Shown here in pieces: positions 6,355 to 24,063 of a stretch of 26,239 nucleotides of DNA. Below the pieces are notes generated by a model. It was not told the origin of the DNA, ran no database searches, and saw nothing but the letters and a program-made list of their open reading frames with translations. The stretch comes from a virus (Duplodnaviria > Caudoviricetes), in the IMG/VR virus record IMGVR_UViG_3300032239_000633, positions 1 to 26,239 of that record; one strand, written 5' to 3'. The position numbers and the translations under genes were made by a program. Positions within the stretch are counted from its first letter, which is position 1; the number at the start of each line of letters is the position of its first letter.

Positions 6355-9354
6355 ATGGCAGAATTTAGACTTGGTAGATTAAAATTCAATTGGAGGGGTG
6401 CATGGACCCCAAGCACTGCTTATGTTATTGACGATATTATTACCTTAGGTGGTAATAGTTACGTTTGTACTGTCAACCATACTTCGGCAGCGAGAGAGGA
6501 TTTATGGTACATTACAGACTATAACATTGGAACTCCTAGATGGGCCGTTCATACTGAAGGTATTCGTACAAGAGGTGATTGGGCTGGACTTACGACCTAT
6601 AGTCCTAATGATATCTTTACCTATGGTAATACACAATATCGTGTAACAACACCTCACTTCTCTTCTGCTGTTGGTGTTATCACCTTTGCATATACAACAG
6701 AATATATCTCTGGTGTGAAAGGTGAAGGTGGATTTAGTCCTACTACAACTTATCAAAAAGGTGATATTGTAACTTATAATGGTAGTGCTTATATCGGTGT
6801 TGCAACTAATGCTGGTGTAGTTCCATCTTTGGGTGTTGGAACTGCCTGGAACTTATTGGTTACTGGTATTTCAACCAATGGTATTAGTACTTATACTGTT
6901 TCCTCAAACTATAGATATGGTGATCTTGTAAGTTATGGTGGTGATACCTATCTTGGTATCGGACTTACAATTCCATTTGGTGCGCGTCCTGTCGGATATG
7001 GTACAACAAGTTCTGCAAACTGGCAACTTCTTGTAAGAGGTTTAAGATATGCTGGTACTTGGTCTACTACAACTGAGTATCAAATTGATGATGTTATTTC
7101 TTATGTTGCATCATCTTATGTTTCTGTTGGATCATCTAACTTAGGTAAGCAACCAGGTACAAGTTGGGCAAGTGGCAACTGGTCTTTACTTGCTGATGGT
7201 TCTTCTGCTGCAGTTTTAACGCAGCGTGGTGATTTAATTACCAGAGATGCTGGTTCTCCTCTAAGATTGGGTATTGGATCTACAGGAACTGCCTTACGTT
7301 CAACAGGTTTGGATCCTATTTGGGATTACTATGGCAATGCGGCAAATAATTATTATGTTAATAACTCTGGACAAGACTGGTCTCAATGGGGACAATCTCC
7401 AGAAACTGCTTGGAAAACTCTAGCATATGCTGTAACTCAGGTACAAACTCCATGTGTTATTCACTTACAAGCTGGAACGTATCAAGAACAATTGCCGATT
7501 ACTGTTCCCGCATTCTGTGAGATTAGGGGAGCATCACAAAGAGGTGTATTCATTGAACCTGCAACTGCTGGACTGGCAACAGGAACTATGTTTTATATGT
7601 CTGATGCAACACTTATTAGTGAAGTTACAGTTAGAGGAATGAGTGGTTGGGCGAAGACAACCAGTGATCCAACTGCAATATTAAGGCAAGATTCTGGAAC
7701 AATTACTTGTCCTCCTACTGGTGTATTCTTTAGACTTAACCCTGCAAGTCCTATTACTTGGAAATCACCTTATATTAAGGATAGTACTGGTATTTGTACT
7801 GGTTGTGTTGGTGTTTATGTTGATGGCAGTCTTCACGCCAGTGGAAATAAGAGTATGGTTTTCCACGCATATACTGTTGTTGCTGATTCTGGTGTTGGAT
7901 ATTGGATAGATAACAATGCTAAGGCAGAAGTTGTTTCAGGATTTACTTACTGGGCGGATTATGGATATCTCACTACTAATGGTGGAGTTATCCGTGCCCT
8001 GAATGGCAATAACTCTTATGGAACTTGGGGATCTGTATCTCTTGGATATTCTCAAACAGAAACTCCAAAAACAGGACAGGTTGATGGGGAGCTTTTAGAG
8101 TATCAAACAGGTACATTAGTTGCTGTTGGTACTGGTGTTACTGTTGGTGCTGCTGTTACTGGTGGTACATCAGGTGCTCGTGGTGTTATTATCTATGATA
8201 TCTCATCAACAAATAGAGTTGCATATCGTCCTGTTGGACTAACTACATTTGTTAAAAATGAAGTTATCTATATTGGACCAGATGCACTTGTTTCTGCTGG
8301 TGCAACTGCAAAACTTCTGAATAATGATGACTTTGATAGTGGAATTAAAGGATATCTCATTCCTCTAAAAGGTCTTACTGAACGTCCTCGTGCAAGAGGT
8401 GGACTTCAATTCATTGGTGTTTCTACAAATGGTATCGGCCAAACCACAAGAAGAACTTCAGGTTCTCTTTATGGTGCTGGTGCAGGAACTGGTTCTACAG
8501 TTGCACCAGGTATTGGATCTGATACTTCGGCATATACGATCAGTGATGTTACTTCCTACGTTGTTCCAACATATGGTCTTGCAGGATATGCTGGAACATA
8601 TACTATGGCAGCTCTTGGATCTGCTGGTACTTATCCAAGTGTTGCCGTATCTGCAGGTGGAACAGGATCTGGAGCATATTTAAATATTACTATTGCTGGT
8701 ACAGGATATCCAAGTATAATTTCGATTTCAACTGCAGGAACATATTATACTCAAGGAGAACAAATTACAGTTAATGGAAACCAAATTGGTGGTGTTGCAG
8801 GAACTGCAATTACATTTAGTGCTGATACTCTAAGAGGAACAGCAATCGTTCGTATTGCTTCTGAAAAACCAGCAACAGCTAAAGCATTTGATGGACAACA
8901 AATTCGTATTCGTTATGACTTTAGCCAGATTAGATTGACAGGTCATGATTTCCTTGATATTGGTATTGGGAATAAAGTTTCTTCCAATTATCCAGGTAAA
9001 CCATTAACAACTGCTATTACTGGAAATCAAGTTGTTGAAGGATATCCTGGAAGAGTTTATTATGTAACTACCGACCAAGATGGAAACTTCCGTGTCGGTC
9101 AATACTTTGCAGTCGATCAGGCAACTGGGGCAGCAACTCTGAATGCTTCTGCTTTCAACCTTTCTGGTTTGACATCTCTGAGACTAGGTTCCCTTGGTGG
9201 TCAAATTGGTGAGGCGATCAATGAGTTCTCATCTGATGGAACTCTATCTGGTAATTCTAATACTGCAGTTCCAACAGAGGCAGCAGTGAAAACTTATGTA
9301 GATACTCAGATTACCAAATCTAGATCATTTGCATACTGGGTAGCTACATCGTGA
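6355..9354 (+). CDS. Large virion structural/tail-fibre protein (999 aa)
   Basis: Gly/Thr/Ser-rich. Five N-terminal (W/F)xxxTxYxxxDxV/IxYxG repeats; YYVNNSGQD...AWKTLAYA...LQAGTYQE beta-helix entry motif; C-terminal NEFSSDGTL..NSNTAVPTEAAVKTYVD. Confidence 0.8.
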   Translation: MAEFRLGRLKFNWRGAWTPSTAYVIDDIITLGGNSYVCTVNHTSAAREDLWYITDYNIGTPRWAVHTEGIRTRGDWAGLTTYSPNDIFTYGNTQYRVTTPHFSSAVGVITFAYTTEYISGVKGEGGFSPTTTYQKGDIVTYNGSAYIGVATNAGVVPSLGVGTAWNLLVTGISTNGISTYTVSSNYRYGDLVSYGGDTYLGIGLTIPFGARPVGYGTTSSANWQLLVRGLRYAGTWSTTTEYQIDDVISYVASSYVSVGSSNLGKQPGTSWASGNWSLLADGSSAAVLTQRGDLITRDAGSPLRLGIGSTGTALRSTGLDPIWDYYGNAANNYYVNNSGQDWSQWGQSPETAWKTLAYAVTQVQTPCVIHLQAGTYQEQLPITVPAFCEIRGASQRGVFIEPATAGLATGTMFYMSDATLISEVTVRGMSGWAKTTSDPTAILRQDSGTITCPPTGVFFRLNPASPITWKSPYIKDSTGICTGCVGVYVDGSLHASGNKSMVFHAYTVVADSGVGYWIDNNAKAEVVSGFTYWADYGYLTTNGGVIRALNGNNSYGTWGSVSLGYSQTETPKTGQVDGELLEYQTGTLVAVGTGVTVGAAVTGGTSGARGVIIYDISSTNRVAYRPVGLTTFVKNEVIYIGPDALVSAGATAKLLNNDDFDSGIKGYLIPLKGLTERPRARGGLQFIGVSTNGIGQTTRRTSGSLYGAGAGTGSTVAPGIGSDTSAYTISDVTSYVVPTYGLAGYAGTYTMAALGSAGTYPSVAVSAGGTGSGAYLNITIAGTGYPSIISISTAGTYYTQGEQITVNGNQIGGVAGTAITFSADTLRGTAIVRIASEKPATAKAFDGQQIRIRYDFSQIRLTGHDFLDIGIGNKVSSNYPGKPLTTAITGNQVVEGYPGRVYYVTTDQDGNFRVGQYFAVDQATGAATLNASAFNLSGLTSLRLGSLGGQIGEAINEFSSDGTLSGNSNTAVPTEAAVKTYVDTQITKSRSFAYWVATS

Positions 9355-9358
9355 TGAT

Positions 9359-9366
9359 TATAAATA
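9359..9366 (+). promoter_or_regulatory. T4-type late promoter
   Basis: Exact TATAAATA in an intergenic region. Confidence 0.7.
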
Positions 9367-9407
9367 ACTTTAAATAACATGACCAAAGAAAAATTGGAGA
9401 ATTGTAA

Positions 9408-9725: not shown

Positions 9726-9749
9726 TTATACCAAGGAGATTTAAGTACA

Positions 9750-10085: not shown

Positions 10086-10119
10086 TGATTAATCCAACTT
10101 ACCAGGGCGAGGATAAAAA

Positions 10120-11271
10120 ATGGCAGATTTAAGATCGCTGATTAAATACGCAGATGATACTACACTGAATCGTGTTGTTGGTTTAACCACTAACTATGGA
10201 TCTCAGTATAGACAGATTCGAATGTATGATTTTTGTCAAGCTGCTCCACAACCTTATACGACTGCATTTCAATGGAGAGCTCCTCAGGGAACTAACTTTG
10301 TTAAAATTGAAATTTGGGGTAGTGGTGGTTCTGGCGCAGGTGCCTGCTGCTGTATGTGGGGATTTCCTGGTGGTGCTGGTGCTTATGCATACAGAAATTT
10401 GTGTGCTAAAGATCTTGGAGATTTGAGTGGATGTCCGTTTGAATTTTGTATTGCAACAGGTGCTTGTTGTGCTAATAATGGTACAGCACCTATGGTTGGT
10501 TATATGGGATGTAAATCCTATGCCACTGGCGTAGGACTTTGTAATTTCTGTGCGGAAGGTGGCGCTCCTGGAATAGTTTTTTGTGCTCTAAGTTATCATT
10601 GTTGCTTCTGCTATAGTGGAGAAGGACAAAATACAATGCACGGAGGTACAATGGACTTCCGTAATGATTACACATTTTGTGGTCCTCAAACTTCTAACTG
10701 TGGATTTTCTTGCTTTGCTCAAGGTGGAGGTATAGGACAGTTTTGGAATGTAAATAATATGGGTAAAAACAAAGCTAACCCATATGCCTGTATGTTTGAT
10801 GGTAAGGCAGGTAGATTTGATACTTGTGGAACTGCAGTTCAATTAGGACATGCCGTTAACCATTGTTATGGTGGTCTTTGTATTGGTACTACTCATTGTG
10901 CTCCTTATTATGGTGCAGATGGTGGTGCATTTGGACTTCCTGGTGCTATTGGATCTCCTTGTAACCAAGATGCTGCTGATTGGTGTATGATTAAGCAGTA
11001 TATCCCATATCCTGGTGGACTAATTAATACTAAAGGTGGATATTGGGCTCGTAGGTATGATAGTATGAACTACGCAGGTGAAAATGCTTATGGTGGTTGG
11101 ATGAGAGCTTCGATGGGATACTGGGGTGGTGGAGATGATGGAAACCACGGCATTCCTGGTGCTGGTGGAAACAGTGCAGGAGCAAGTGGTGGCAACTGCT
11201 ACTGTGGTGGACCTGGATATAATGGATTAGTACAGATCACCTATGGTGGATCTGGACAAGGATACGTTTGA
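10120..11271 (+). CDS. Cys/Gly-rich putative fibre-tip protein, paralogue 1
   Basis: MADLRSL start, EIWGSGGSGAGACCC..GFPGGAGAY, GCKSY..G.GLCNFCAEGG, GLVQITY; 28 Cys in 383 aa (hand count). Confidence 0.75.
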   Translation: MADLRSLIKYADDTTLNRVVGLTTNYGSQYRQIRMYDFCQAAPQPYTTAFQWRAPQGTNFVKIEIWGSGGSGAGACCCMWGFPGGAGAYAYRNLCAKDLGDLSGCPFEFCIATGACCANNGTAPMVGYMGCKSYATGVGLCNFCAEGGAPGIVFCALSYHCCFCYSGEGQNTMHGGTMDFRNDYTFCGPQTSNCGFSCFAQGGGIGQFWNVNNMGKNKANPYACMFDGKAGRFDTCGTAVQLGHAVNHCYGGLCIGTTHCAPYYGADGGAFGLPGAIGSPCNQDAADWCMIKQYIPYPGGLINTKGGYWARRYDSMNYAGENAYGGWMRASMGYWGGGDDGNHGIPGAGGNSAGASGGNCYCGGPGYNGLVQITYGGSGQGYV

Positions 11272-11293: not shown

Positions 11294-12286
11294 ATGGCAG
11301 ACTTAAGAAAACTACTCAACACAGAAAACGCAGATTACTTGCAAAGGCAAGCAAGAGCTGGTTATATCAACCCAACCACAAACGTTGATGCCCCACAATC
11401 AACTACTTGGGGCACTGGATGGGGACCCGTTCTTGAAGATGGATATACTCAGTATTTTGTTGGACAATGTAATAATCAAAACTGTGATGCATCTTATTGG
11501 GCTTACTGTGGTGGGTGGTGCGCTCCTCCTGGTGTAACGCAAATCACCTTTGAGATCTGGGGTGGTGGCGGTTCTGGCGCAGGTGCCTGCTGCTGCCAGC
11601 AAGGGTCTCCAGGTGGTGCGGGGGCATATACACGTAAGACTCTCTGTGGATGTGATTTCCCAGGTCAATCTCTGGGTGGTATGTGCTATCTTTGGTTCCT
11701 TGCCCCTCCAACTTGCTGTTCTGCTTGTTGTGTAGGACTTCGTGGATGTAAGACATATATTACAGGATGTGGTCTATCAAACTTCTGTGCCGATGGTGGA
11801 CTTCCTGGCAAAACCTGCTGTGGTGTTTTTTATATTGGTGGCGTTGCACCAACTTATGGACCTTCTTGTTCTTCCTATGCGAATGGTTCGGGAGCAGGAC
11901 TTGGTGGATCAGGATGTTATACATTCCCACCTGATGGTTTTGTTGCTTGTGATTGTGCTTGTGGATATGGTGGAGATTATGCAGTTGGTGGAAAACTAGG
12001 ATGGTTCCGTGTTGACTGTGCTTGTGGCGATAATTGCTATGTAAAACTTGGAATTCCTCAACCTGGTGGTACTAGAGATCAATGCACCAGATACTTCATT
12101 ACTAAGAATATGGGTAATGCTTGCATCAATGAGTGTATTGCATACAATAGTGCTGAATGGCCTGGACATACTTGCTGTGGTTGGGGAATGCACGGACAAG
12201 GATCCCCATCTGCAACCTCTTGTGCTGGATCTTGCTGTTATGGCCAGCGTGGTTCTAGAGGACTAATTCGTATTACCTATAAATAA
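11294..12286 (+). CDS. Cys/Gly-rich putative fibre-tip protein, paralogue 2
   Basis: MADLRKL start, EIWGGGGSGAGACCC..GSPGGAGAY, GCKTY..G.GLSNFCADGG, GLIRITY; 35 Cys in 330 aa (hand count). Confidence 0.75.
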   Translation: MADLRKLLNTENADYLQRQARAGYINPTTNVDAPQSTTWGTGWGPVLEDGYTQYFVGQCNNQNCDASYWAYCGGWCAPPGVTQITFEIWGGGGSGAGACCCQQGSPGGAGAYTRKTLCGCDFPGQSLGGMCYLWFLAPPTCCSACCVGLRGCKTYITGCGLSNFCADGGLPGKTCCGVFYIGGVAPTYGPSCSSYANGSGAGLGGSGCYTFPPDGFVACDCACGYGGDYAVGGKLGWFRVDCACGDNCYVKLGIPQPGGTRDQCTRYFITKNMGNACINECIAYNSAEWPGHTCCGWGMHGQGSPSATSCAGSCCYGQRGSRGLIRITYK

Positions 12287-12308: not shown

Positions 12309-13265
12309 ATGTCAAATTTAAGAAGTCTTTTAGGAACTAAAGATATCAATGTTTCTGGAATTTATTCTGGAGGTATTGGTAGACTTAGACCAGGACAAAC
12401 AACTTATTTTGCTGTTCATGACTGTGGTAGTGATTCAACTGCTGCATCTGCATTTAACTCTCAGTTCTATTGCTGCTGGAGGGTTCCTGGATCACCGACA
12501 GGCACTGGAACCACTGTAGTTACCTTTGAGGTCTGGGGAGGCGGTGGAGGCGGTGCTGGCGCCTGCTGCTGTATGATTGGTGTTCCTGCTGGTGCTGGCG
12601 CCTATGCCCGTAAAACAGTTACTGGGATTGCCTCAGGAACTGCATATGATATTTGTATCGGAACAATCGGATGTAGAACTCCTGATGCTGTTGGTACTAG
12701 GGGATGTAAATCATATGTTACAGGATCTGGTCTATCAAACTTCTGTGCTGATGGTGGTCATGCTGGATGTAGTCTTTGTGCTGCTCAGCATGATTCTAGA
12801 ATCTATCACTTTAAAACATCTTTAGGTGGTGCTGCTTCTGGATGCTGCCAGGGTCTTTATACAGGATGTAATGATATTGTTGGATTCTCAACATTCTCCA
12901 ACTTCTGTGTAGGTTGTTGCGCCCAATACTTTGGTGCCGACTTTGGTGCTTATGGTCTTCCTGGAGCAATTCAACTTTGTGCTTGGGGTACTTGTAGACA
13001 AAAAAATAAACTTTATATTGCTTATCCTGGTGGATTGGTTAACGAACAGGGTGGATATATTAATATTTCAATGTATTGTGATAATAGTTGTGGTTTCCGC
13101 GAACAGTGCTGTGCTGCTACTCTGATTGGGTTTGGGGGTGGTGGCGCACAAGGATATGTTCCTGGAGTAGGCGGAGTTTCAGCTTGGAATTGTGCGGCTA
13201 ATACCTGTTGCTGTGGAAGTGCAGGTTACGCTGGCGCCGCTAGGATAACCGTACAGTGGGTTTGA
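12309..13265 (+). CDS. Cys/Gly-rich putative fibre-tip protein, paralogue 3
   Basis: MSNLRSL start, EVWGGGGGGAGACCC..GVPAGAGAY, GCKSY..GSGLSNFCADGG, GAARITV; 28 Cys in 318 aa (hand count). TATAAATA at 12278-12285 upstream. Confidence 0.75.
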   Translation: MSNLRSLLGTKDINVSGIYSGGIGRLRPGQTTYFAVHDCGSDSTAASAFNSQFYCCWRVPGSPTGTGTTVVTFEVWGGGGGGAGACCCMIGVPAGAGAYARKTVTGIASGTAYDICIGTIGCRTPDAVGTRGCKSYVTGSGLSNFCADGGHAGCSLCAAQHDSRIYHFKTSLGGAASGCCQGLYTGCNDIVGFSTFSNFCVGCCAQYFGADFGAYGLPGAIQLCAWGTCRQKNKLYIAYPGGLVNEQGGYINISMYCDNSCGFREQCCAATLIGFGGGGAQGYVPGVGGVSAWNCAANTCCCGSAGYAGAARITVQWV

Positions 13266-13303
13266 TACAATAAATATAAATTACATAGGAGTGTATTTTA
13301 CTT

Positions 13304-14291: not shown

Positions 14292-14320
14292 AAAAAAGGG
14301 GAGTAAATCACTCCCCTTTA
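14292..14320. terminator. Intrinsic (possibly bidirectional) terminator
   Basis: AAAGGGGAGT-AAATC-ACTCCCCTTT inverted repeat, with an A6 run on the left and TTT on the right. Confidence 0.75.
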
Positions 14321-14345
14321 CACTATCTAAATAGTGCGGTATAAT
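14317..14345 (+). promoter_or_regulatory. sigma70-type promoter for the glycan cassette
   Basis: TTTACA (14317-14322), 17-nt spacer, TATAAT (14340-14345); GAGG RBS before ATG 14369. Confidence 0.65.
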
Positions 14346-14368: not shown

Positions 14369-15547
14369 ATGAGATCGACTGCGTTTTTCGTAAACGGAGG
14401 GGCGGGGCGTGTAATTTGCTCTATTCCTGCATTTGAAAAATATCAAGAAGAACATCCAGATGATGATTTCATCATTGTCTGTGAAGGTGGAACAGATTTT
14501 TTCAAAGGTCATGCAACTCTATATCCAAGAGTATATGACAATTGGCATAAGAATCTTTTCAGGGAAAAGGTTCAAGAAAGAAATATTGTAACGACAGAAC
14601 CATATCGTATTTGGGAATATTACAATCAAAAGTGTAATCTTTCTCAGGCATTCGATATTCAGATTAATAATAAAGGTATTAGGAGTCTTCCTCGCCCAAG
14701 TTTAAAGTTCTCTCGTCAAGAAATCATTCAAGCAAAGTTTGTAATCGAAGAAGTTCGTCAAAAAACTAAAAGAAATAAACTTGTTGTTTTTCAACCATTT
14801 GGGCGTGGTGCTCAAATGATGGGTAACTTTATTACTGATTCTGGTGGAAGAAGTTTTGAACTTGGCAATGTTATTTCTATTGTGAAGAGACTTCAGAAGA
14901 AAGGTTATGGCGTTATCTTTATGAGTGAATTCTCCATTGACTTCACTAAGGAAGGATGCACTGAACCTATTGCCGCACCTCAAGGTGTTGATTTACGTCA
15001 GTGGGCTGCAATTATTGGTGAAGCAGATCTATTCTTTGGTTGTGATTCTGTAGGACAACATATTGCTTATTCTAAAGAAGTTCCTGCAGTAGTTGTTGTT
15101 GGTTCAACTTGTAAGGAGAACATTAGTTATCCTGATTATGAGAAGTTTGAAGTTCTTGATATGGGAGAAGGTCTAAGAATCTATGATCCCATTCGCATTG
15201 CTATGGATGAAGTTACTCATCGAATTAACGATGGTATCATGGCAATGAATGATAAAGTTGAGGAAGTCATCATTGAATCTATTGATAAAATGATGAAAAA
15301 GTTTTATGTTAAGAAAAACGAATTGGTTGTACTCCCAAGTCAAGATTGTGGTACTGAATCTTGTGGTGCCCCTTCTCAACAAATTTCTCAGGCACCAAAG
15401 ATGATTGGGTCATTGGAGTCTTCTCCAACTATCAATTCTATGCTAGAATCTGCAAAGAAAACAACTGCCATTGGTGAGTTGATTCAATCATCAAAGAATG
15501 GTAGTTCTAAAAAACCAACTGGATTTGTTGATACAATTAAAAAGTAA
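14369..15547 (+). CDS. GT9-like glycosyltransferase (ADP-heptose:heptosyltransferase-like)
   Basis: N-terminal GGAGRVICSIPA (cf. xxGDxxxxxP); VVFQPFG; LRQWAAIIGEADLFFGCDSVGQHIA...PAVVVVGST (GT9 DS..xH motif). About 70-aa low-complexity C-terminal tail. Confidence 0.7.
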   Translation: MRSTAFFVNGGAGRVICSIPAFEKYQEEHPDDDFIIVCEGGTDFFKGHATLYPRVYDNWHKNLFREKVQERNIVTTEPYRIWEYYNQKCNLSQAFDIQINNKGIRSLPRPSLKFSRQEIIQAKFVIEEVRQKTKRNKLVVFQPFGRGAQMMGNFITDSGGRSFELGNVISIVKRLQKKGYGVIFMSEFSIDFTKEGCTEPIAAPQGVDLRQWAAIIGEADLFFGCDSVGQHIAYSKEVPAVVVVGSTCKENISYPDYEKFEVLDMGEGLRIYDPIRIAMDEVTHRINDGIMAMNDKVEEVIIESIDKMMKKFYVKKNELVVLPSQDCGTESCGAPSQQISQAPKMIGSLESSPTINSMLESAKKTTAIGELIQSSKNGSSKKPTGFVDTIKK

Positions 15548-15560
15548 TTAGAGATTTTAT

Positions 15561-17243
15561 ATGACGACTATTCTTTCTTGTGCTCGTGGTCACAATGCAA
15601 GTACCACTTTGATGGTTGATGGTGAGATTGTTTTTTATCTTGAAGAAGAAAGACTCTCCAGATTTAAATATGATGGTGCCCCTTTGATGGGTCTCATCAA
15701 GGCATTTGATTATGTGGATGAGATCGATCATCTTGTGATTTGCCATACTCATCGTCATGGACCTGTTCTTGACTGGTGTGGTGATGATGCTTATCAGGGT
15801 CTAGTTCGTAAGATTGCACGTAAGAAATTTGATTTCGAAACGCATTTTATTGATACAATTCACCACCAAATGCACGGTGCCTGTGGATTTTATAACTCAG
15901 GATTTGAAACTGCTGCCTGTGTAATCGCTGATGGTGCTGGAAGTTTCCTTCAATTTGATGGAGTTCAGGATACATTCTATGAGTTTGAATCAATCTTTAA
16001 AGCATCTTATCCTCATGAGTTTGAGATTGTTTATAAGCATATTGGTACGAAGTCACCAATCGGTATGGTTGAAACTCAAGCAGGAGTATATGCAACAGAA
16101 TATCCTGGTCTTACCAAGATGTATGAGGCAGTAACTGAGTACTGTGGTTTCCCTGCAATTGAAGCAGGTAAACTGATGGGTCTTGCTCCTTATGGAAAAT
16201 CAAATGAAGATCTTCCTCCATTCTTTAGTAATGGTTGGGGAAATCGTGAACTCATTATTCCAACCTATCCTAATGCTGCAAAGATTAATGTTGGACGTTA
16301 TCCAATTCTTGCAGAGGATGTTAAAAAGCATCAAAAGGGAGAATATACTGAAGTTCAAAAAGATATGGCATATGCGATTCAGGAAGCAACCGAGAATCGT
16401 ATGATTGAACTGATTCGTAAGGCACACGAAGAAACAGGTGAAACAAACATTGTTATTTGTGGTGGATATGGACTGAACTGTGTTGCCAACTATAAGTATC
16501 TTCAGGCATTCCCTGATTTGAATATCTATTGCGAACCTATTTCTCACGATGGTGGAACATCAATTGGTGGAGCACATTTTATGTGGCATCAAATTAGTGA
16601 GAATACGGAACCTAAGAAGCAGGCATCTGTTTATTATGGACCTCAGTATTACATTGATTCTTATGAAGATGATTTGGAAGGTCTCAATGTAACTGATACT
16701 TCTTATGATGAAGTTGCAAAACTAATTCGTGATGGTAACATTGTAACCTTATTCCAAGGTCGTTCTGAGGGTGGTCCTCGTGCTCTTGGTAATCGTTCCA
16801 TTCTCTTTGATCCTACCATTAAAGATGGTAAGGATATTGTGAATGCTGTGAAGCATCGTGAGTGGTTCCGTCCTTTTGCTTGTTCCATTAAGCAAGAACA
16901 AGTTCATGATTGGTTTGATCTTGCTGGACGTGAAGAAACTCCCCATATGATGTATGCTGTTAAGTGTCTTCCTGGAGTTGAGGAAAAGATTCCTTCGGTT
17001 ATTCACGTTGATGGTACTTGCCGTATTCAAACTGTTACTGAAGAACAGAACGAACATTATTACAGTCTGATTGATGCATTCGAAAAACTGAGTGGAGTTC
17101 CTATTCTATTCAATACCAGTTTCAATCTGGGTGGAGATCCTTTGGTCGAAACGATTGAGGATGCTGTTCTGACTCTTCGTAAGAGTGATATTGAATATAT
17201 GTACCTTCCTGAAATTCAAAAACTAGTATACGTTCCTAATTGA
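15561..17243 (+). CDS. O-carbamoyltransferase, NodU/CmcH/TobZ family
   Basis: EEERLSR, HHQMH, DGAG, EAGKLMGLAPYG, GGYGLNCVAN, DGGTSIG, RSEGGPRALGNRS, KHREWFRPFA, HVDGTCRIQTV, NTSFN. Confidence 0.95.
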   Translation: MTTILSCARGHNASTTLMVDGEIVFYLEEERLSRFKYDGAPLMGLIKAFDYVDEIDHLVICHTHRHGPVLDWCGDDAYQGLVRKIARKKFDFETHFIDTIHHQMHGACGFYNSGFETAACVIADGAGSFLQFDGVQDTFYEFESIFKASYPHEFEIVYKHIGTKSPIGMVETQAGVYATEYPGLTKMYEAVTEYCGFPAIEAGKLMGLAPYGKSNEDLPPFFSNGWGNRELIIPTYPNAAKINVGRYPILAEDVKKHQKGEYTEVQKDMAYAIQEATENRMIELIRKAHEETGETNIVICGGYGLNCVANYKYLQAFPDLNIYCEPISHDGGTSIGGAHFMWHQISENTEPKKQASVYYGPQYYIDSYEDDLEGLNVTDTSYDEVAKLIRDGNIVTLFQGRSEGGPRALGNRSILFDPTIKDGKDIVNAVKHREWFRPFACSIKQEQVHDWFDLAGREETPHMMYAVKCLPGVEEKIPSVIHVDGTCRIQTVTEEQNEHYYSLIDAFEKLSGVPILFNTSFNLGGDPLVETIEDAVLTLRKSDIEYMYLPEIQKLVYVPN

Positions 17244-17246
17244 GAT

Positions 17247-17654
17247 ATGGAGAAAAAAAAGAAAATCTTTGTAAATGGTACGTTCGATCTTTTACATGTC
17301 GGACATCTCCAACTACTAAATCACGCTAGAGGATTGGGTGATTTCTTAACTGTTGCAATTGATAATGATGAAAGAGTAGCAGAGAAGAAAGGTCTTGATC
17401 GACCTATTCTTCCTGCAAAAGAAAGACTCTTTCATCTGATGAATCTTAGAGCAGTTGATGAGGGTTTTATTTTTGATAGCGATGAAGCACTTGAATTAGT
17501 TGTAAGTAAGGTAAAACCTGATATAATGGTAGTAGGTTCTGATTGGAGAGGTAAAGAAATTGTTGGATCAAATTATGCGGGAGAAGTTCAATTCTTTGAC
17601 CGACTTCCCGAATGGTCAACCACAAATGTCATACAACGTATTATTAATCGGTGA
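17247..17654 (+). CDS. Nucleotidyltransferase, HldC/RfaE domain II-like (heptose-1-P adenylyltransferase)
   Basis: NGTFDLLHVGH (HxGH), KG..RP, KPDIMVVGSDW, STT. TagD-like cytidylyltransferases share these motifs; genomic context favours HldC. Confidence 0.85.
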   Translation: MEKKKKIFVNGTFDLLHVGHLQLLNHARGLGDFLTVAIDNDERVAEKKGLDRPILPAKERLFHLMNLRAVDEGFIFDSDEALELVVSKVKPDIMVVGSDWRGKEIVGSNYAGEVQFFDRLPEWSTTNVIQRIINR

Positions 17655-18366
17655 TACCTGCATTGATGAATATGTGTATGGGACCTGCACTAAATTAAAT
17701 CCCGAATCTCCTGTTCCCATTTTAAGTTTCAAACATAAAGAAACTAAGATGGGAATGTCAGGTAATGTGTTAGAGAATCTTAAATCATTTAATATTAATG
17801 TTACTCACATTACAAACAGAGAAAAGATTACAAAAACAAGATATGTTGATGAAAGATATAATCATCAACTTCTGAGAGTAGATGAGGACATTCAAATCGA
17901 AACTTTTTTGGGTTTTTTACCCGAAGAAAATTTTGATGCAGTTGTAATCTCTGACTATGCAAAAGGATTTCTAACAATTGATAAGATCTATGAAATTGTA
18001 GAGACTTATACCTGTCCTATTTTTATTGACAGTAAAAAGGTTCATCTTCCCGATGCAGAACATGTATTCATTAAGATCAATGAATCCGAATCTCAAAAAC
18101 TTAGAACTCGTCCTAAAAATTTAATTGTAACTTTAGGAGAACGAGGAACATTTTTTAATAATACAATTTATCAGGCAAATAAAGTTAATGTATTTGATGT
18201 AGTTGGGGCAGGAGATACTTTTATTTCTGCTCTGACTTATTTCTATCTGGAAACAAACAGTATAGAAAGTGCTATAATAAAAGCAAATAGAGCAGCGGCA
18301 ATTGCCGTTCAACATAGAGGAACATATGTTCTTACTAAGGAGGATATAAATGAAATACGTAGTTGA
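17626..18366 (+). CDS. PfkB-family kinase, HldA/RfaE domain I-like (heptose-7-P kinase)
   Basis: VLLIGD..IDEYVYG...LNPESPVP, KTRY...QLLRVD, ISDYAKG, VTLGERG, DVVGAGDTF. Start at ATG 17626 (MSYNVLLIGD) is preferred. Confidence 0.88.
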   Translation: MSYNVLLIGDTCIDEYVYGTCTKLNPESPVPILSFKHKETKMGMSGNVLENLKSFNINVTHITNREKITKTRYVDERYNHQLLRVDEDIQIETFLGFLPEENFDAVVISDYAKGFLTIDKIYEIVETYTCPIFIDSKKVHLPDAEHVFIKINESESQKLRTRPKNLIVTLGERGTFFNNTIYQANKVNVFDVVGAGDTFISALTYFYLETNSIESAIIKANRAAAIAVQHRGTYVLTKEDINEIRS

Positions 18367-18676
18367 TATTGACGGTACAATTTGTACGAATGGGGATTGT
18401 TCTGCTTGTAAGTATGAGGGGAGTGTTCCTATTCCTGATCGAATTGAAAAAATTAATAAACTTTATGATGAAGGACATACCATTTGGTACTTTACTGCTC
18501 GTGGAATGGGTAGATATAATGATGATGCAAAAAAAGCAAATGAAAAGTTTTATGCACTTACCAAAATGCAATTGGGTATTTGGGGATGTAAGTATCATGA
18601 ACTTGTTCTTGGCAAACCATCTGCAGACTACTACATAGATGATAAGGCAATAGAATCTAATGAGTTCTTCAATTAA
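18350..18676 (+). CDS. Minimal HAD-family phosphatase
   Basis: DIDGT motif I, FTARG motif II, GKP..DYYIDDK motifs III/IV; AGGAGG RBS. Confidence 0.85.
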   Translation: MKYVVDIDGTICTNGDCSACKYEGSVPIPDRIEKINKLYDEGHTIWYFTARGMGRYNDDAKKANEKFYALTKMQLGIWGCKYHELVLGKPSADYYIDDKAIESNEFFN

Positions 18677-19025
18677 ATTAGTCCCCAAAGGTTGGGGATA
18701 TGAAAAGTGGATTGTCAATACTGAGGAGTATTGTGGAAAACTTTTGTACTTTGTAAAAGATGGAAGATGCTCTTACCATTATCATAAATTAAAAGACGAA
18801 ACTTTCTACGTTCAATCGGGAAAGATTCGTCTTTATTATGGGACTAATGATGATTATGATAATGCAAATCATATCACCTTAGTGAAGGGTGATAAGTTTC
18901 ATGTTCGTAGAGGATTGAGACATCAAATGGTTGCATTAGAAGATACTGAGTTGTTTGAATTTTCAACTCAGCATTTCGATGAAGATAGTTATAGAATTAT
19001 CCTAGGAGATAGTCTTCAACCGTAG
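18660..19025 (+). CDS. Cupin-domain sugar isomerase-like protein
   Basis: KGWGYE, SYHYHKLKDETFYV, distal His (GLRHQM); mannose-6-P isomerase/D-lyxose isomerase-like cupin. Confidence 0.8.
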   Translation: MSSSIKLVPKGWGYEKWIVNTEEYCGKLLYFVKDGRCSYHYHKLKDETFYVQSGKIRLYYGTNDDYDNANHITLVKGDKFHVRRGLRHQMVALEDTELFEFSTQHFDEDSYRIILGDSLQP

Positions 19026-19785
19026 TAAAAGGATAATCCTTAATCCAAAACATATCAGCACAGGTATAATTCTGATATTTGCCAATCAGATGCTCGGGGA
19101 AGGGGATGTAACGTACATCTCCCCCCTCTTTCTTTGCAACACACTCTGCAACGTGTTGGAACGACACAGGGGATCCTGTGCCTATATCGTAGATGCCACT
19201 AGGTTGGTTGTTTCTTAACACTAGATCAACAACATCATCTACGCATACAAAATCCCTATAGAACTCATCCGATCCTTCGAAGAGTTCGAGATATCCTTTT
19301 TCCTTGATTTGTTTAGTGAATTTACTGACGGGACTTGCCTGATCTCCCTTTTGATCCTCTCCTTTTCCATAGACATTAAAATATCTGAAACCTTGTATCG
19401 ACTTAAACTTGTCAATGTTATCAAGGACGTAATAATCGATTTGAAGTTTTGATATTGCGTAATAGTTGAGAGGATTGATGTATCCAACTGTGTTCCCATA
19501 AACCGATGCTGAAGAAGCATATTTAACGGGAATCTGATACTCGATTGCTTTCTCAAATAGTTTAATTGAGAAGTCAACATTATACTTATGGATTTTATTA
19601 ATATCTTTCTCTACTGTGCTAGAAATTGCTCCCTGGTGAATAATGAGATTCACCTTGTCCCAATCAGTATAGTCATTAAGAAATGGATATGCACCACTTG
19701 CTTCTACCCTATAAACATTTTCAAGATCTAGGTTGTTGCAAAAGTGTTGTCCGATAAAACCATTATGTCCTGTAAGAATGATCAT
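18997..19785 (-). CDS. hldD: ADP-L-glycero-D-manno-heptose 6-epimerase
   Basis: TGHNGFIG (GxxGxxG), HQGAISSTVE, YASSASVYG, PLNYYAISK (YxxxK), GFRYFNVYG, RDFVCVDD, YQNYTCAD. Confidence 0.88.
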   Translation of the reverse strand: MIILTGHNGFIGQHFCNNLDLENVYRVEASGAYPFLNDYTDWDKVNLIIHQGAISSTVEKDINKIHKYNVDFSIKLFEKAIEYQIPVKYASSASVYGNTVGYINPLNYYAISKLQIDYYVLDNIDKFKSIQGFRYFNVYGKGEDQKGDQASPVSKFTKQIKEKGYLELFEGSDEFYRDFVCVDDVVDLVLRNNQPSGIYDIGTGSPVSFQHVAECVAKKEGGDVRYIPFPEHLIGKYQNYTCADMFWIKDYPFTTVEDYLLG

Positions 19786-19846: not shown

Positions 19847-21028
19847 GTGGCAATAGGAAGACTTGGTTCTTTTAAAACTTCAACAATAGTTGGATTAAAT
19901 ACCAATACGGTATTATATACATCAACTGGAACCTTGTCGAAGGTCACAATTAATGTGACGAATCAGGGTGTAGAAGATGCCACTTTTTCGATTGGAATTA
20001 GTTCAGGAACATCCTTTAGAGATTCTGACTTTATTGTTTACGGACAAACTATCAAGAAAAATACCTACGCATCAATTACAAATGTAGGTATTAGTAGTGG
20101 AGAAACAATTTTTACAAGAGCAAACAAAGAAAATGTTAGTTTTATTGCTCTTTCTGTAGTTGATTATGATGCTTCTATCGGAACATTTTTTGGTAGACAA
20201 GAATCAGTAAGAACCTCTTTATCGGGTCCTGCACTTGTAAATGATCCAGTAGTTCTTTATACTGCTTCAAAAGCAGCGCAAGTTAGTATATCGGTCAATA
20301 ATACTAGTCAGGATGATGCCATATATTCGATTGGCATTTCTTCTAGTGGTTTATCTCAGTTTACATCTTCCGATTATATTATCTTCGGGCAACCTCTTAC
20401 AAAAAGAACTACACAAATTATTGATTCGATTGGAATTGGTACGGGTCAAAGTATCATTGTAAAGGCGAATGAAACTGACATAACATTCGTTGCTTATGAT
20501 CTTCCAACATCAGTTCTTGAAAAAATAACAGTTGGTGATGCAATTAGTATTGCATCAAGTGTAACTGCCCGTGGTGGATTCTATGGCAACTTAGTTGGAA
20601 ATGTATATTCCGCTGGTATTTCTACCTTTAATAACGGCGGCATAATCATTGGCGCCGCTGGAACAAATTTAATTGTAAATGGCGATGCTAGAATTACTGG
20701 TATTCTGACTCTTGGAACTTCCAGTATTACTTTAAATGGAAATACCAATACAATTAAAATCGGAACAGGAGTTTCAATTACTAATAGTAGAATTGATTTA
20801 GTTGGAGTTCTGAGTGCAACTAGTATTAATTCGACCAGCATTAATGCAACGGGAGTTTCTACATTTAATAATGTAATTGTGGGTGGAGCAGCAACGGCAT
20901 TAGTTGTAAATAATAATCTTACAGTTACGGGTATTGCATCAATTAGTGATCTTGTGGTAACTAATAGTGTTAAAGGAAATGCTATTGATGCAACTGCAAT
21001 TGTTTATAGTATTGTCTTCGGATCATAA
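19847..21028 (+). CDS. Virion structural/fibre protein with duplicated N-terminal domain
   Basis: GTG start; two ~110-aa repeats (VLYT...V.I.V.N...DA..SIGISS...SD.I..GQ), then GISTF/GVSTF-type beta-repeat shaft. Confidence 0.75.
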   Translation: MAIGRLGSFKTSTIVGLNTNTVLYTSTGTLSKVTINVTNQGVEDATFSIGISSGTSFRDSDFIVYGQTIKKNTYASITNVGISSGETIFTRANKENVSFIALSVVDYDASIGTFFGRQESVRTSLSGPALVNDPVVLYTASKAAQVSISVNNTSQDDAIYSIGISSSGLSQFTSSDYIIFGQPLTKRTTQIIDSIGIGTGQSIIVKANETDITFVAYDLPTSVLEKITVGDAISIASSVTARGGFYGNLVGNVYSAGISTFNNGGIIIGAAGTNLIVNGDARITGILTLGTSSITLNGNTNTIKIGTGVSITNSRIDLVGVLSATSINSTSINATGVSTFNNVIVGGAATALVVNNNLTVTGIASISDLVVTNSVKGNAIDATAIVYSIVFGS

Positions 21029-21031
21029 ATA
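21024..21031 (+). promoter_or_regulatory. Late promoter
   Basis: CATAAATA overlapping the stop codon, upstream of 21064. Confidence 0.55.
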
Positions 21032-21063
21032 TCTTAAAACGGAACTAATTAGGGATAATATTA

Positions 21064-24063
21064 ATGGCAAGATCTTTAGTTCATGATTATATTTTTGTTC
21101 CAGGTGCTGCTAGTGTAGGAACTATTACTGTTAATGGTAATGTTCATCTAAAAAGACTTCTTGTAGTTACAAATGTAACTCGTAATATTATCATCTATAA
21201 TTTTGCTGATTCAACAAAATCTGCGACTAGTAGTTATAATTCAACAACAGATAAAACAACATTTACATTAGGATATTCGACAGTAGGTATGTCTGCAACA
21301 GATCAGTTGCAGATTTACTCAGAAAAAGATTCGACAGAAATTACAGGATCCACAACTCTAACAGATCCTACTGACAAGTTCAGAGTTACAACTCCACAAG
21401 CACTGATTGATACCGACTTTGAATACGGCACTCAGACTACTAAGTGGGAAAACTTAGGTTTAATTAATAACAGACCTTTTGCATATAATACTTCAACTCC
21501 AATTTCAGGGATAAACTATATTCTTTATCCAACAGGATCTAGAATAGTTACTGTTGGTATGTCAGTAACCGCTCCTGGTATTGGAACTGCTATTACAGTA
21601 CAAGATGCTTTTCTTAACATTGCAAATGGAAACTTCTTAGTTGAAAGTGTTTCTGGATCGGGAAGTACAATCTTTACTTATACTGGAAGAGCACAAAATA
21701 TTACACAAGTAACTCAAGTTTTTGATCCAAATAAAACGGGTATCTATACTGGAGCAGTATATGCCAATGCTCAAATTGGTGGAACTCCAACAATTACTTA
21801 CAGTGGAACTAGAATTACAGTAGTAACAACAATTCCACACGGATTAGGTCTTGGTAATGAAGTTGCTATTGTAAACACTTCTGCTTCTACGAATCCACCA
21901 AATGGATCTTTTATTGTAACTCGTATTACAAGCTCATCTTCTTTTGAGGTTGTTGCCCCTGTTGCTCCATCTGGTTCAGTGACTGGTGGTATAATTTATG
22001 TAAGACCTCAAGCACAATTCTTACATAGACCTTTTGATGGTGGTGTTCTATTTTCAAGTAATGCAACTGCTAACTATGAAACTGCCATTCGTCAAACCAG
22101 AAGATACTTCCGTTATCAATCTGGTAAAGGTATTATGATTAGTTCGGGTACAATCCTGAAACCTAATCTGCAGATTGACTCAATGGTTGGTGTTGGTACT
22201 GTTGTTACAGTTACCACAAGAGAACAACATAACTTACAGGGATCTGGAGATACCATTACAATTTTTGGTGCTAATCAATCCGAATACAATGGAACTTTCC
22301 CTGTCAGTGGAGTAACTGGATATAATAGTTTTCAATATGTTTTACCTTCTTCTGTTACAACTTCTCCTGCTACAGGAGTATTCAATGCTTCGGTTGCTGG
22401 GTGGTATGGTTGTGTAAATCGTTTAGGTGCATTTGATTCCCAAAACGGATTGTTCTTTGAATTTGACGGACAGCAACTATATGCAGTTCGTAGAAGCTCC
22501 ACATATCAAATTTCTGGAAGAGCAAGTATTGTTAATGGATCATCAATAATTACTCAAACTAATACTTCTTTCCCAACATTTTTTGCAAGTCAACTAGATG
22601 TTGGTGATTTTATTGTTATTAGAGGACAATCATATCGTGTTACCGATATTGAAAGTAATACTCAGTTTGAGATTAGTCCAGCATATCGTGGAGCGACTGC
22701 TGATTATGCAATTGTTTCAAAAACACAAGATCTTAAGATTCCCCAATCACAATGGAATCTTGATAAGATGGATGGCACTGGACCTTCGGGATACAGAATA
22801 GACCTCACCAAAATGCAGATGTTCTATATTGATTATTCTTGGTATGGTGCTGGTTATGTTCGTTGGGGACTACGCGGAGCAAATGGTACAGTTACATATT
22901 GCCATAAATTGCCAAATAATAATGCAAACACTGAAGCTTATATGCGTTCAGGTAACTTACCAGCACGTTACGAATCAACTTCAATTCCTCCAATTACAAA
23001 ACTAAGAAGAGCACTTGGAGAATTTGATACAACTGTTGGTGTTGCTAGTACTTCAGGATTCCCACCAGTTGGAACTTTAGTAATTCGTAATGCAAATACT
23101 TATGAGTACATAAATTATACTGGTCTTTCAACTGATGGATTTACTGGAGTAATTAGAGGGAAAGCAGGAAATTCTTCTCTTAACATTGGTATTGCAACGG
23201 GTAGCAATGTTGGATTTGGAACTACTTCAGATCTCCAAATAGGGCAAAGAGTCGTCTCCCCATCTTTCCCCGAATCAACATTTATCACTGGTATTGGAAG
23301 TACATCAATCACTTTTAGTCAAGCGGCAACATCTGCAAATCCGTTAGGAGCTCTTGTTCCTCCAATGGGAATTACTACAGGTGCCAATTTTGTTTATAGT
23401 TTAACAGACCCTGTTGCAGTTGAATTGGCATATCCATCATTTGGTCCATCCATTTCCCACTGGGGTACGTCCGTAATTATGGATGGAAGATTTGACGATG
23501 ACAAATCACTCGTGTTTACTTACGGACAATCTTCATCAACAACTATTAATTCTGGTGTAACAAGAGCACTGTTCTCAATTCGTATTGCTCCATCGGTTGA
23601 TAATGGTATCGCTGGATCATTTGGAACTAGGGAATTAACTAATAGACTTCAATTAAAATTATCTACTTTGGATATTACCACAACAACTGCTGGTTCAAAC
23701 CTTCTGGTTCGTGCATATCTTAATGGTACTCCTTCTCCAGGGGCAAACTGGACCAATGCTGTTGGTAATGTTGCAGGTGCTATTAACTCATCCCTCGCTC
23801 AACTTGCAGACTACTCTGGTGGTAGCACTACTGTAATTGGTGGAGAAGTTATATCAGGATTCTTTGTGGGATCTGGTGCTCTCTCAATCGATCTTACAAA
23901 CGTTAGAGACCTTGGTAACTCCATTCTTGGTGGCGGTGGTGCTTCATCAGCATCTCAAATCTATCCTGATGGACCAGATGTTCTAACAATTGTTGTAACA
24001 AATATTGGTGCATCCTCTGCAACGGTGTTTGGTAGACTATCGTGGACCGAAGCACAGGCATAA
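21064..24063 (+). CDS. Large virion structural protein (999 aa; baseplate/fibre-associated)
   Basis: Thr/Ser/Gly-rich; LLVVTNVTRNIIIYNFAD, PQALIDTDFEYG, RQTRRYFRYQSGKG, IDYSWYGAG; repeated T..HxL..G..V/I.I....NG.F.V modules. Confidence 0.8.
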   Translation: MARSLVHDYIFVPGAASVGTITVNGNVHLKRLLVVTNVTRNIIIYNFADSTKSATSSYNSTTDKTTFTLGYSTVGMSATDQLQIYSEKDSTEITGSTTLTDPTDKFRVTTPQALIDTDFEYGTQTTKWENLGLINNRPFAYNTSTPISGINYILYPTGSRIVTVGMSVTAPGIGTAITVQDAFLNIANGNFLVESVSGSGSTIFTYTGRAQNITQVTQVFDPNKTGIYTGAVYANAQIGGTPTITYSGTRITVVTTIPHGLGLGNEVAIVNTSASTNPPNGSFIVTRITSSSSFEVVAPVAPSGSVTGGIIYVRPQAQFLHRPFDGGVLFSSNATANYETAIRQTRRYFRYQSGKGIMISSGTILKPNLQIDSMVGVGTVVTVTTREQHNLQGSGDTITIFGANQSEYNGTFPVSGVTGYNSFQYVLPSSVTTSPATGVFNASVAGWYGCVNRLGAFDSQNGLFFEFDGQQLYAVRRSSTYQISGRASIVNGSSIITQTNTSFPTFFASQLDVGDFIVIRGQSYRVTDIESNTQFEISPAYRGATADYAIVSKTQDLKIPQSQWNLDKMDGTGPSGYRIDLTKMQMFYIDYSWYGAGYVRWGLRGANGTVTYCHKLPNNNANTEAYMRSGNLPARYESTSIPPITKLRRALGEFDTTVGVASTSGFPPVGTLVIRNANTYEYINYTGLSTDGFTGVIRGKAGNSSLNIGIATGSNVGFGTTSDLQIGQRVVSPSFPESTFITGIGSTSITFSQAATSANPLGALVPPMGITTGANFVYSLTDPVAVELAYPSFGPSISHWGTSVIMDGRFDDDKSLVFTYGQSSSTTINSGVTRALFSIRIAPSVDNGIAGSFGTRELTNRLQLKLSTLDITTTTAGSNLLVRAYLNGTPSPGANWTNAVGNVAGAINSSLAQLADYSGGSTTVIGGEVISGFFVGSGALSIDLTNVRDLGNSILGGGGASSASQIYPDGPDVLTIVVTNIGASSATVFGRLSWTEAQA

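Follow-up and report, generated by a model that had tools for sequence, protein, structure and literature searches.

A GT9-fold transferase beside cysteine-rich fibre genes shifts the cyanophage 'LPS gene' cassette towards a candidate role in virion-fibre heptosylation

What does a cyanophage make with a set of heptose-pathway genes that lies in the middle of its tail-fibre genes, and to what does it attach the product? This question is raised by the viral contig IMGVR_UViG_3300032239_000633, which was analysed over its whole length of 26,239 bp (the window) and stems from a T4-like cyanophage with psbA at position 707. It carries a cassette of seven open reading frames (ORFs) for a GT9-fold heptosyltransferase-like enzyme (GT), an O-carbamoyltransferase (CT), HldC-, HldA- and HldD-like enzymes, a small HAD phosphatase and a cupin. 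An earlier sequence-only reading had described seven contiguous or overlapping genes flanked by virion genes; all seven ORFs are present in the window, abutting or overlapping, and the flanks hold virion genes on both sides (Table 1). Comparable cyanophage 'lipopolysaccharide (LPS) genes' have been without a defined product since 2005 and, as the earlier reading had stated, are listed without one in the accessible text of PMC3037559 and PMC7824862. The gene set is thus real, conserved and already in print, and our evidence moves its interpretation away from host LPS genes and towards heptosylation of virion fibres by an atypical GT9 branch. We consider it reasonably probable, judging from sequence and structural models, that the cassette serves virion tailoring, that is, the heptosylation and subsequent carbamoylation of the phage's own fibres.

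The GT had no Pfam match and weak RfaQ matches (3e-5), and since a PDB sequence search was empty and a profile search yielded WaaF alone (E 0.02), its fold had to be predicted. An AlphaFold model from 86 sequences (pLDDT 95.9) bears out the previously assumed GT9-like transferase, with Z scores of 24.2 to 3tov, 21.7 to WaaF, 19.8 to TibC, 19.5 to the NDH subunit 7wff and 19.2 to WaaC, the next unrelated glycosyltransferase following at 12.5. Foldseek agrees on the GT9 type, as does hhalign of the GT profile against ten GT9 proteins from E. coli and other sources (98.9%, E 1e-16). The donor motif D226-S227-x3-H231 is kept (D226 in 86/86 aligned proteins, S227 in 85/86, H231 in 86/86), its Gly being shifted by one position relative to D-S/T-G-x-x-H. 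The same hhalign alignment places the 'VGD' of WaaF on 'AGR' of the GT, so that the catalytic-Asp position is occupied by Arg14. This position holds Arg in 81 of the 86 aligned proteins (Lys in 3, Cys in 1, Ser in 1), in 229 of 233 GT ORFs from the loci described below (Lys in 1, motif not located in 3) and in 28 of a further 37 loci from a scan seeded with Vibrio and Aeromonas phages (Lys in 9).

According to the available portions of the respective sources, Asp13 is the catalytic base of WaaC and WaaF for hydroxyl acceptors (bioRxiv 2022.06.13.495986), and Asp110 is that of TibC, a dodecamer that modifies Ser of a linked adhesin and additionally bears an N-terminal beta-barrel and a four-Cys iron finger (PMC4358343). 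In the GT, the barrel is missing (model residue 1 pairs with TibC residue 96), and so is the iron finger, as the alignment holds no near-invariant Cys. Because of the Arg replacement and the missing barrel and finger, the GT is, by sequence and model, built as a heptosyltransferase and yet outside both the LPS GT9 group and that of the autotransporter heptosyltransferases (BAHT, TibC/AAH). It shares with WaaC/WaaF (PDB 2h1f, 1psw, 3tov) the GT-B fold (Z 19-24) and the donor-site D-S/T-x3-H, but at 11-14% identity, with Arg for Asp13, outside any LPS operon and for a host whose LPS lacks Kdo. With TibC/AAH it shares the fold class, a predicted ADP-heptose donor and the position of its gene beside an adhesin-like putative acceptor, as far as the accessible text of PMC4358343 describes that system.

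A thiol or another acidic acceptor would need no catalytic base. Given a fibre target, we infer that S-linkage is about as likely as O-linkage, because a site that is lined by Arg and has no base suits a nucleophile of acidic character, and Cys sits at positions where homologues are polar (see below). An S-linked heptose on fibre cysteines is, taken by itself, a possible but doubtful proposition. Cysteine is used as a sugar acceptor by the SunS-type glycocin S-glycosyltransferases, which are not known to involve heptose or the GT9 fold.

The constant companion of the GT is a Cys-rich fibre protein. Loci were collected as the best 80 per IMG/VR scan, which are related to one another, and supplemented with cultured phages. 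Among the 80 closest loci, 44 have at least 8 kb on both flanks; all 44 carry a fibre gene, a chaperone and a CT, and 43 a Cys-rich gene, while HldA, HldC, HldD and the cupin occur in 30 (with the HAD in 26 of these) and 14 are without hld genes nearby. The cassette-fibre linkage is therefore kept in related phages, and of the two targets that had been left side by side, fibre and host surface, this linkage favours the fibre. A reverse search from the Cys-rich protein, which overlaps the GT-seeded set, found both GT and CT in all 57 loci with at least 6 kb downstream among the best 80, and all 12 phage records with a homologue of Cys-rich paralogue 3 also hold the GT. For breadth, three scans were pooled, and the 234 GT loci were reduced to 66 at <70% identity, 50 of them with flanks of at least 5 kb. 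A Cys-rich neighbour, defined as an ORF with at least 10 Cys per 150 amino acids, was present in 41 of these 50 loci versus 0/30 cellular control loci, and in 38/38 of the CT-bearing versus 3/12 of the CT-less ones. The Vibrio/Aeromonas-seeded scan, which reached mostly more distant loci (37, of which 18 non-redundant), showed Cys-rich neighbours in 14 of 16 well-flanked loci. In some of these, no more than 30 bp part the Cys-rich ORF from the GT, and the 6-kb flanks hold no CT. In a FastTree phylogeny of the GT, Cys-rich neighbours appear on several separate branches, and the full ADP-heptose pathway, which adjoins the GT in 21 of the 50 non-redundant loci, is likewise spread over several branches. 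The fixed core is the GT9-fold transferase with Cys-rich fibre proteins, to which CT and heptose genes are add-ons. Of the suggested co-occurrence of GT and CT with Cys-rich genes, the GT is the fixed member and the CT is optional.

Three cultured phages illustrate this core, as the GT directly adjoins a Cys-rich tail protein in the N4-like Vibrio phages SBP1 (41 Cys in 925 amino acids) and D497 (41/1756) and in Aeromonas phage HJ05 (23/559), and a CT was not found in any of these three genomes. Scans found no close relatives of the HJ05 GT and two loci with relatives of the SBP1 GT. In three Vibrio phages without the GT, the homologous tail proteins contain 0.45-1.2% Cys, or 4-7 Cys versus 41; residues aligned to the Vibrio tail-protein Cys are polar, charged or Gly in 56 of 87 cases and Cys in one, and the Cys of the Vibrio coiled coils are scattered. 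RCC1 proteins follow the same trend, with 4.3-8.8% Cys in three of five GT loci and 0.2-2.0% in 20 proteins for which the flanking sequence retrieved held no GT; one repeat position holds Cys in 7/43 versus 0/89 instances. Cys-rich neighbours thus span glycine-rich, RCC1 and coiled-coil folds. Giant fibre-like proteins of about 10% Cys (137/1458 and 88/914) also adjoin the GT (locus L287 at 2302-6675, L224 at 415-3156, L261, L435). Two GT loci, L422 and L424, are best read with TGA as sense (table 4 by coding density) and have Cys-rich neighbours as well. In L059, L075-L078, L080, L082 and L083, the GT and CT form a block of opposite orientation to the fibre genes, which nevertheless lies between Cys-rich genes and a large virion protein.

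The three Cys/Gly-rich proteins of the window are candidate acceptors. For paralogue 2, a Gly_rich_2 lead came from the ESM Atlas (17% of one cluster), and Gly_rich_2 (PF21722) matched three of four homologues, one of them above cut-off, while the window proteins themselves had no Pfam match; a model of pLDDT 47 gave a weak fold match to the Pam3 fibre (E 0.03), and a PDB profile search with the Cys-rich protein was empty. The adjacent chaperone is supported by Phage_tail_APC (PF16778) in three of four homologues tested, two above cut-off, the window protein again being without a Pfam match.

Cys-rich fibres could instead bind metals or form disulfide networks, with the GT acting as a non-catalytic binding or assembly factor or transferring a non-heptose group. 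The missing catalytic Asp would fit this, as would the high rank of the chloroplast NDH subunit 7wff_a among the fold matches, which we take to be a non-enzymatic protein of GT9 fold; several alignment columns of the Gly-rich paralogues hold Cys throughout, and CC (1.95x) and CxC (1.41x) pairs are enriched, as in metal-binding proteins. However, CxxC is not in excess in the Cys-rich proteins (0.96x), and where the Vibrio coiled coils have their scattered Cys, homologues have polar residues. The GT also keeps D-S-x3-H at the donor site without exception and is repeatedly accompanied by a complete ADP-heptose pathway. We therefore regard this explanation as rather improbable. Even Cys counts are not favoured (55/123), and no sequon around Cys is evident.

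Remodelling of the host surface, the standing reading of cyanophage 'LPS genes' in the accessible text of PMC1079782, PMC3037559, PMC7824862 and PMC7029224, is the most serious competitor of fibre heptosylation. Carbamoyl-heptose on host LPS or capsule would prevent superinfection or keep progeny from re-adsorbing, and the position of the genes beside the adhesins would reflect masking of the receptor that those adhesins use. The closest folds of the GT are indeed LPS heptosyltransferases, hydrophobic segments are absent from the GT and the cassette enzymes, as in LPS enzymes of the cytoplasmic face, and a sigma70-like site behind a hairpin precedes the GT in the window, a site of this kind also being found at 13 of 61 homologous loci. 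On the other hand, this reading leaves unexplained why tail proteins of several unrelated folds are Cys-rich beside the GT while GT-less homologues are Cys-poor, and the GT lacks the Asp that activates hydroxyls. One GT family serves phages of cyanobacteria, Vibrio and Aeromonas despite the different surfaces of these hosts, and a flippase, polymerase or export gene was not found in the cassette. Moreover, the earlier statement that Synechococcus LPS lacks heptose and Kdo agrees with what the available part of PMC4390846 says of cyanobacterial LPS, which would thus offer no Kdo acceptor. Taken together, we judge host-surface remodelling to be unlikely.

How would the heptose be supplied? The HldC-, HldA- and HldD-like proteins match the profiles rfaE_dom_II (7e-34), rfaE_dom_I (7e-41) and heptose_epim (8e-60), all below the NCBIfam equivalog cut-offs, and keep the expected motifs: HVGH and WSTT in HldC, SDYAKG, INESE and GAGDT in HldA, and YxxxK, FRYFNVYG and the next Lys in HldD, which is 37% identical to E. 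coli RfaD. The HAD protein has the motifs DIDGT, TAR and KPSADYYIDD and is by family of the EcbF/BcbF type, not a GmhB orthologue, so that of the ADP-heptose pathway claimed earlier kinase, nucleotidyltransferase and epimerase stand, whereas GmhB has to be replaced by a probable substitute. A CDP- or UDP-heptose product was considered and dropped: the motif (F/L)xxGRSTT, which marks the promiscuous STTR5 HENases making these sugars in the accessible text of PMC11573728, is missing, RLPEWSTT being found instead. In the 12 commonest sequence contexts of HldC homologues, Y, F or W precedes STT.

The pathway was further thought to be self-contained, but the first enzyme, GmhA, is missing. A SIS-fold GmhA was not found in the window, and the counts were 0/5 for complete isolate genomes (control 8/14), 0/5 for further contigs and 0/234 for GT loci; a gmhA elsewhere in the genome, for instance in the other sugar cluster of P-SSM2, was sought and not found. 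The cupin probably replaces GmhA as sedoheptulose-7-phosphate isomerase. Its best PDB match is the D-lyxose ketol-isomerase 2y0o (4e-6), followed by the D-lyxose/D-mannose isomerase 7nzo (3e-5), with other cupins close by (2e-5 to 8e-5); residues H40, H42, K45, E47, H88 and E100 are invariant, and the motif set YCxK...HxH...KxETF...H...EFS is present. A manno-configured ketose-aldose step suits the D-lyxose/D-mannose isomerase family, and its activity could extend to sedoheptulose-7-phosphate. Cupin homologues were found at 49 genome loci, about a dozen of which look like binned phage contigs, and none has gmhA nearby. Within 100 ORFs, scanned for 23 of the 49 loci, nine cellular-looking cupin loci lie beside hldA, hldC or hldE, and six lie beside a GT9 gene; eight of the nine genomes are, incomplete as they are, without a credible gmhA. 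Across 24 cupin genomes, likewise incomplete, GmhA-like matches, all below cut-off, occurred at about 1e-42 in two, twice at 1e-24 in one and as a split 1e-19 match in one. Of five phage contigs without a local cupin, two carry one elsewhere. Woesearchaeota and Peribacteraceae operons (L133 at 7001-9302, L135 at 7001-10409) read cupin-hldA-hldC-gmhB(-GT9), the cupin standing where GmhA would be expected. In public records, the HAD is labelled 'phosphoheptose isomerase' and the cupin 'cysteine dioxygenase'; from their sequences both labels look wrong, and the former hides the absence of gmhA. Compared with the bacterial GmhA/HldE/GmhB/HldD route, in which the same three enzymes are recognisable, the phage version has split and shortened HldA and HldC, and a D-lyxose-isomerase-like cupin and an EcbF-type HAD replace SIS-fold GmhA and GmhB.

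A private donor supply would make sense in these hosts. In a sample of the family to which a Prochlorococcus genome belongs, HldC-like genes occurred in 5/151 genomes, one occurrence being a likely phage contig, and this rarity fits a need for the phage's own pathway, as does the report that cyanobacterial LPS is without Kdo and heptose (PMC4390846, in its accessible part).

The CT carries Carbam_trans_N and Carbam_trans_C domains above cut-off (3e-20/1e-58), matches 7xb6 (5e-55) and TobZ (3e-52) in the PDB, and keeps the metal and nucleotide motifs GHN, HHQMH, DGAG, HDGG and KHREW. It shares both Pfam domains and motifs with TobZ/NodU/CmcH and with the phage 5-hydroxymethylcytosine (5hmC) CT described in the available text of PMC8670742; its neighbours, the GT and fibre genes, are unlike the antibiotic or hydroxymethylase genes of those known systems. 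A second, divergent CT (about 30-40% identity) is often inserted (L009, L013-L015, L018, L020, L023, L024, L069, L081; L003, L004), and these insertions, along with 2-oxoglutarate (2OG) oxygenases, suggest variable tailoring. Two phages without nearby hld genes (L021 at 12927-13565 on the minus strand, L037 at 12903-13574) carry beside the CT a GmhB-like HAD which has lost the first catalytic Asp motif (ARDG/TRDG) and is possibly a pseudo-enzyme.

The kinship of the CT with antibiotic O-carbamoyltransferases could point to a diffusible carbamoylated-heptose metabolite, an antibiotic or toxin, as Iyer et al. (2021) suggested beside capsule decoration for the S-SSM6a cluster (PMC7824862, in the text available). 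Such a product would go with the genes inserted in S-SSM7 and Sf-FS3: both have another CT and 2OG oxygenases, and the former has a halogenase too. These inserted genes are, however, missing from the window, S-CAM1, S-CAM3 and P-SSM2, a scaffold-building or export gene was not found, and the one constant companion is a virion protein rich in Cys; we thus give the metabolite little credence. Still less probable is hypermodification of DNA by heptosylation and/or carbamoylation of hydroxymethylated bases. In favour of it, phage glycosyltransferases adding heptose to 5hmC were reportedly described by Pyle in 2024, and 5-carbamoyloxymethylcytosine is the product of a phage enzyme that belongs to this CT family, according to the accessible text of PMC8670742. 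In that same text, however, glycosyltransferases are noted as flanking neighbours of those CTs that lie on unmodified contigs. The thymidylate-synthase-family hydroxymethylase, partner of the 5hmC CT, occurs in 0/5 complete cyanophage genomes with the cassette (control 10/14), the window itself being a 26-kb fragment, and the cassette sits among tail genes. A TET/JBP search gave 0/5 and, its control being silent too, says nothing for or against.

Under the preferred reading of fibre heptosylation, the steps could be as follows. The cupin may convert sedoheptulose-7-phosphate to heptose-7-phosphate, which HldA would phosphorylate to heptose-1,7-bisphosphate; the HAD may release heptose-1-phosphate, HldC would form ADP-D,D-heptose, and HldD would epimerize it to ADP-L,D-heptose. 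During assembly, the GT would transfer heptose onto the Cys-rich fibre protein, possibly onto Cys thiols, and the CT would cap it as O-carbamoyl-heptose with carbamoyl phosphate and ATP. Such a coat could stabilize the fibres, or mask or tune their receptor binding. A bolder version, which we put forward tentatively and consider more likely wrong than right, holds that this phage-borne GT9 branch turned into a protein S-heptosyltransferase when Arg took the place of the catalytic Asp, and that it puts thioglycosidic heptose, often carbamoyl-capped, on dozens of surface Cys whatever the fold of the fibre; acquisition of the enzyme would drive Cys-richness, and cyanophages would draw the donor from a private pathway starting at a cupin isomerase unrelated to GmhA.

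Several points weigh against fibre heptosylation. The sugar itself is predicted, and the case is built on sequence, linkage and models. The lost Asp may also mean an inactive protein or base-free O-transfer, as POFUT1-like O-transfer proceeds without a base. Since receptor-blocking genes also adjoin receptor-binding genes, linkage alone cannot name the target. The locus counts overstate independence, because the loci are related and were taken as best matches; the control comprised cellular loci, not tail-gene loci, and the 'GT-negative' RCC1 loci were judged within at most 10 kb. Nine of the 50 non-redundant loci, all distant (29-37%) and without CT, have no Cys-rich neighbour; five of them hold fibre-like ORFs with mild enrichment (2.4-3.7% Cys), L219 and L256 have no fibre-like gene in their flanks, and the RCC1 proteins beside the GT of L238 and L263 are Cys-poor (0.5-1.8%). 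A need for hld genes limited to cyanophages is at most tentative: psbA/D was present in 4/50 mostly fragmentary contigs, all four hld-bearing, and one of five 'no-hld' contigs carries hldE and the cupin elsewhere. Finally, a hairpin and a sigma70-like site part the GT from the fibre genes and so allow early expression.

Expression signals upstream of the GT are mixed. The sigma70-like site of the window (TTTACA-17-TATAAT, 11/12, a consensus match only) has counterparts in 13/61 homologous loci versus 2.6 in shuffled sequence, and the late-promoter-like TAAATA lies within 150 nt upstream of the GT in 52/61 loci, compared with 1/57 for the CT and 2/37 for HldC. ATAAATA is not above chance in the window (13 versus 9.6 +/- 3.1), with all 13 on the plus strand. 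These consensus matches suggest that the GT is expressed late with the structural genes and from an early promoter in some phages. As hldD is on the minus strand, convergent with the six plus-strand genes (14369-19025), the cassette forms two transcription units. Another 11/12 sigma70-like site at 19912-19940 (minus strand), in the 5' end of the next fibre gene, could by its sequence drive hldD; it lies upstream of only 4/37 homologues.

Table 1. Features of the 26,239-bp window around the cassette
Feature	Position	Strand	Basis
Long tail fibre protein, 999 amino acids, 6 Cys, heads fibre module	6355..9354	+	phrog_9851 tail fibre, E 9e-261
Cys/Gly-rich fibre-tip paralogue 1, 383 amino acids, 28 Cys; candidate acceptor	10120..11271	+	phrog_4205, Cys count, alignment
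Cys/Gly-rich fibre-tip paralogue 2, 330 amino acids, 35 Cys; candidate acceptor	11294..12286	+	Gly_rich_2 lead
Cys/Gly-rich fibre-tip paralogue 3, 318 amino acids, 28 Cys; candidate acceptor	12309..13265	+	phrog_4205
Probable tail-fibre assembly chaperone, 324 amino acids	13304..14278	+	homologues match Phage_tail_APC PF16778
Hairpin 14295-14319, then overlapping sigma70-like site with TAAATA in spacer	14295..14345	+	consensus matches
GT9-fold heptosyltransferase-like enzyme (GT)	14369..15547	+	predicted fold, donor motif
TobZ/NodU/CmcH-type O-carbamoyltransferase (CT), 560 amino acids	15561..17243	+	PF02543 + PF16861
HldC-like heptose-1-phosphate nucleotidyltransferase, 135 amino acids	17247..17654	+	TIGR02199 7e-34
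HldA-like heptose-7-phosphate kinase, 246 amino acids, ATG start	17626..18366	+	TIGR02198 7e-41
Small EcbF/BcbF-type HAD phosphatase, probable GmhB substitute	18350..18676	+	TIGR01689 5e-10
Cupin, probable sedoheptulose-7-phosphate isomerase in GmhA's stead	18660..19025	+	D-lyxose ketol-isomerase match
HldD-like ADP-heptose 6-epimerase; overlaps cupin 3' end by 29 nt	18997..19785	-	TIGR02197 8e-60
Downstream virion genes: 393-amino-acid fibre-like, 999-amino-acid virion structural	19847..24063	+	phrog_11338 (weak, 4e-6), phrog_5838 2e-289

Between the long fibre and the Cys/Gly-rich paralogues lie two small genes. The same gene order is found in S-CAM3, S-CAM1 and P-SSM2, and likewise in S-SSM7 and Sf-FS3 apart from their inserted tailoring genes, and being kept across all five it is not due to chance. 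Just upstream, P-SSM2 and S-SSM7 also have Cys-rich genes (36 Cys in 356 and 355 amino acids; 28-30 of about 262). The window cassette does not differ in gene content from the cyanomyovirus 'LPS gene' string T4-GC 302-308 (P-SSM2 gp307-313, S-SSM7, S-CAM1/3, Sf-FS3), whose orthologues follow the same fibre genes in unchanged order, hldD again being convergent. At the other end of the window (707-2965), the psbA ORF diverges beyond '...VMHER', and two HNH-like endonuclease ORFs come next (2062-2490, 2594-2965). This arrangement points to an intron close to the 3' end of psbA, and a comparable one is reported for S-PM2.

For the string itself, host-surface or metabolite roles have been proposed (PMC1079782, PMC3037559, PMC7824862), and T4-GC 304, 305, 307 and 308 were listed among co-occurring 'LPS genes' of unknown function (Sullivan 2010, PMC3037559); in the accessible text of these three sources, T4-GC 302 is not identified as a GT9 protein, nor are the Asp-to-Arg change, the Cys-rich partners or the role of the cupin. 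The role of heptose pathways in viruses is called open in the available part of PMC11573728. In the open-access literature, we found nothing on this GT, its link to Cys or the cupin's role. Virion glycosylation has reportedly been described in mycobacteriophages by Freeman (2023), with glycosyltransferase families, sugars and targets that differ from those here and are not known to include heptose or a GT9 fold, and Tang (2024, Science) is said to have assayed viral heptose enzymes, which may include cyanophage Hld proteins. Three points had escaped the sequence-only reading: Arg stands for Asp in the GT, the Cys-rich protein is the fixed partner with CT and hld genes optional, and GmhA is missing.

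The enzyme and candidate acceptors singled out here can be tested by mass shifts of +192 Da for heptose and +235 Da for carbamoyl-heptose, either on the cultured phages S-CAM1, S-CAM3, P-SSM2 and Vibrio phage SBP1 or in E. coli K-12, which makes ADP-heptose itself. If the cupin acts as proposed, unrelated enzymes would have solved the GmhA step twice, and the labels 'phosphoheptose isomerase' and 'cysteine dioxygenase' would need correcting. If the sugar is S-linked, it would constitute dense protein S-heptosylation, which we did not find in the open-access literature searched, and provide a usable thioglycosylation enzyme. If fibre heptosylation is true, one class of supposed host-modifying auxiliary genes would belong to virion morphogenesis, and the receptor-binding proteins of abundant aquatic phages would be glycoproteins.

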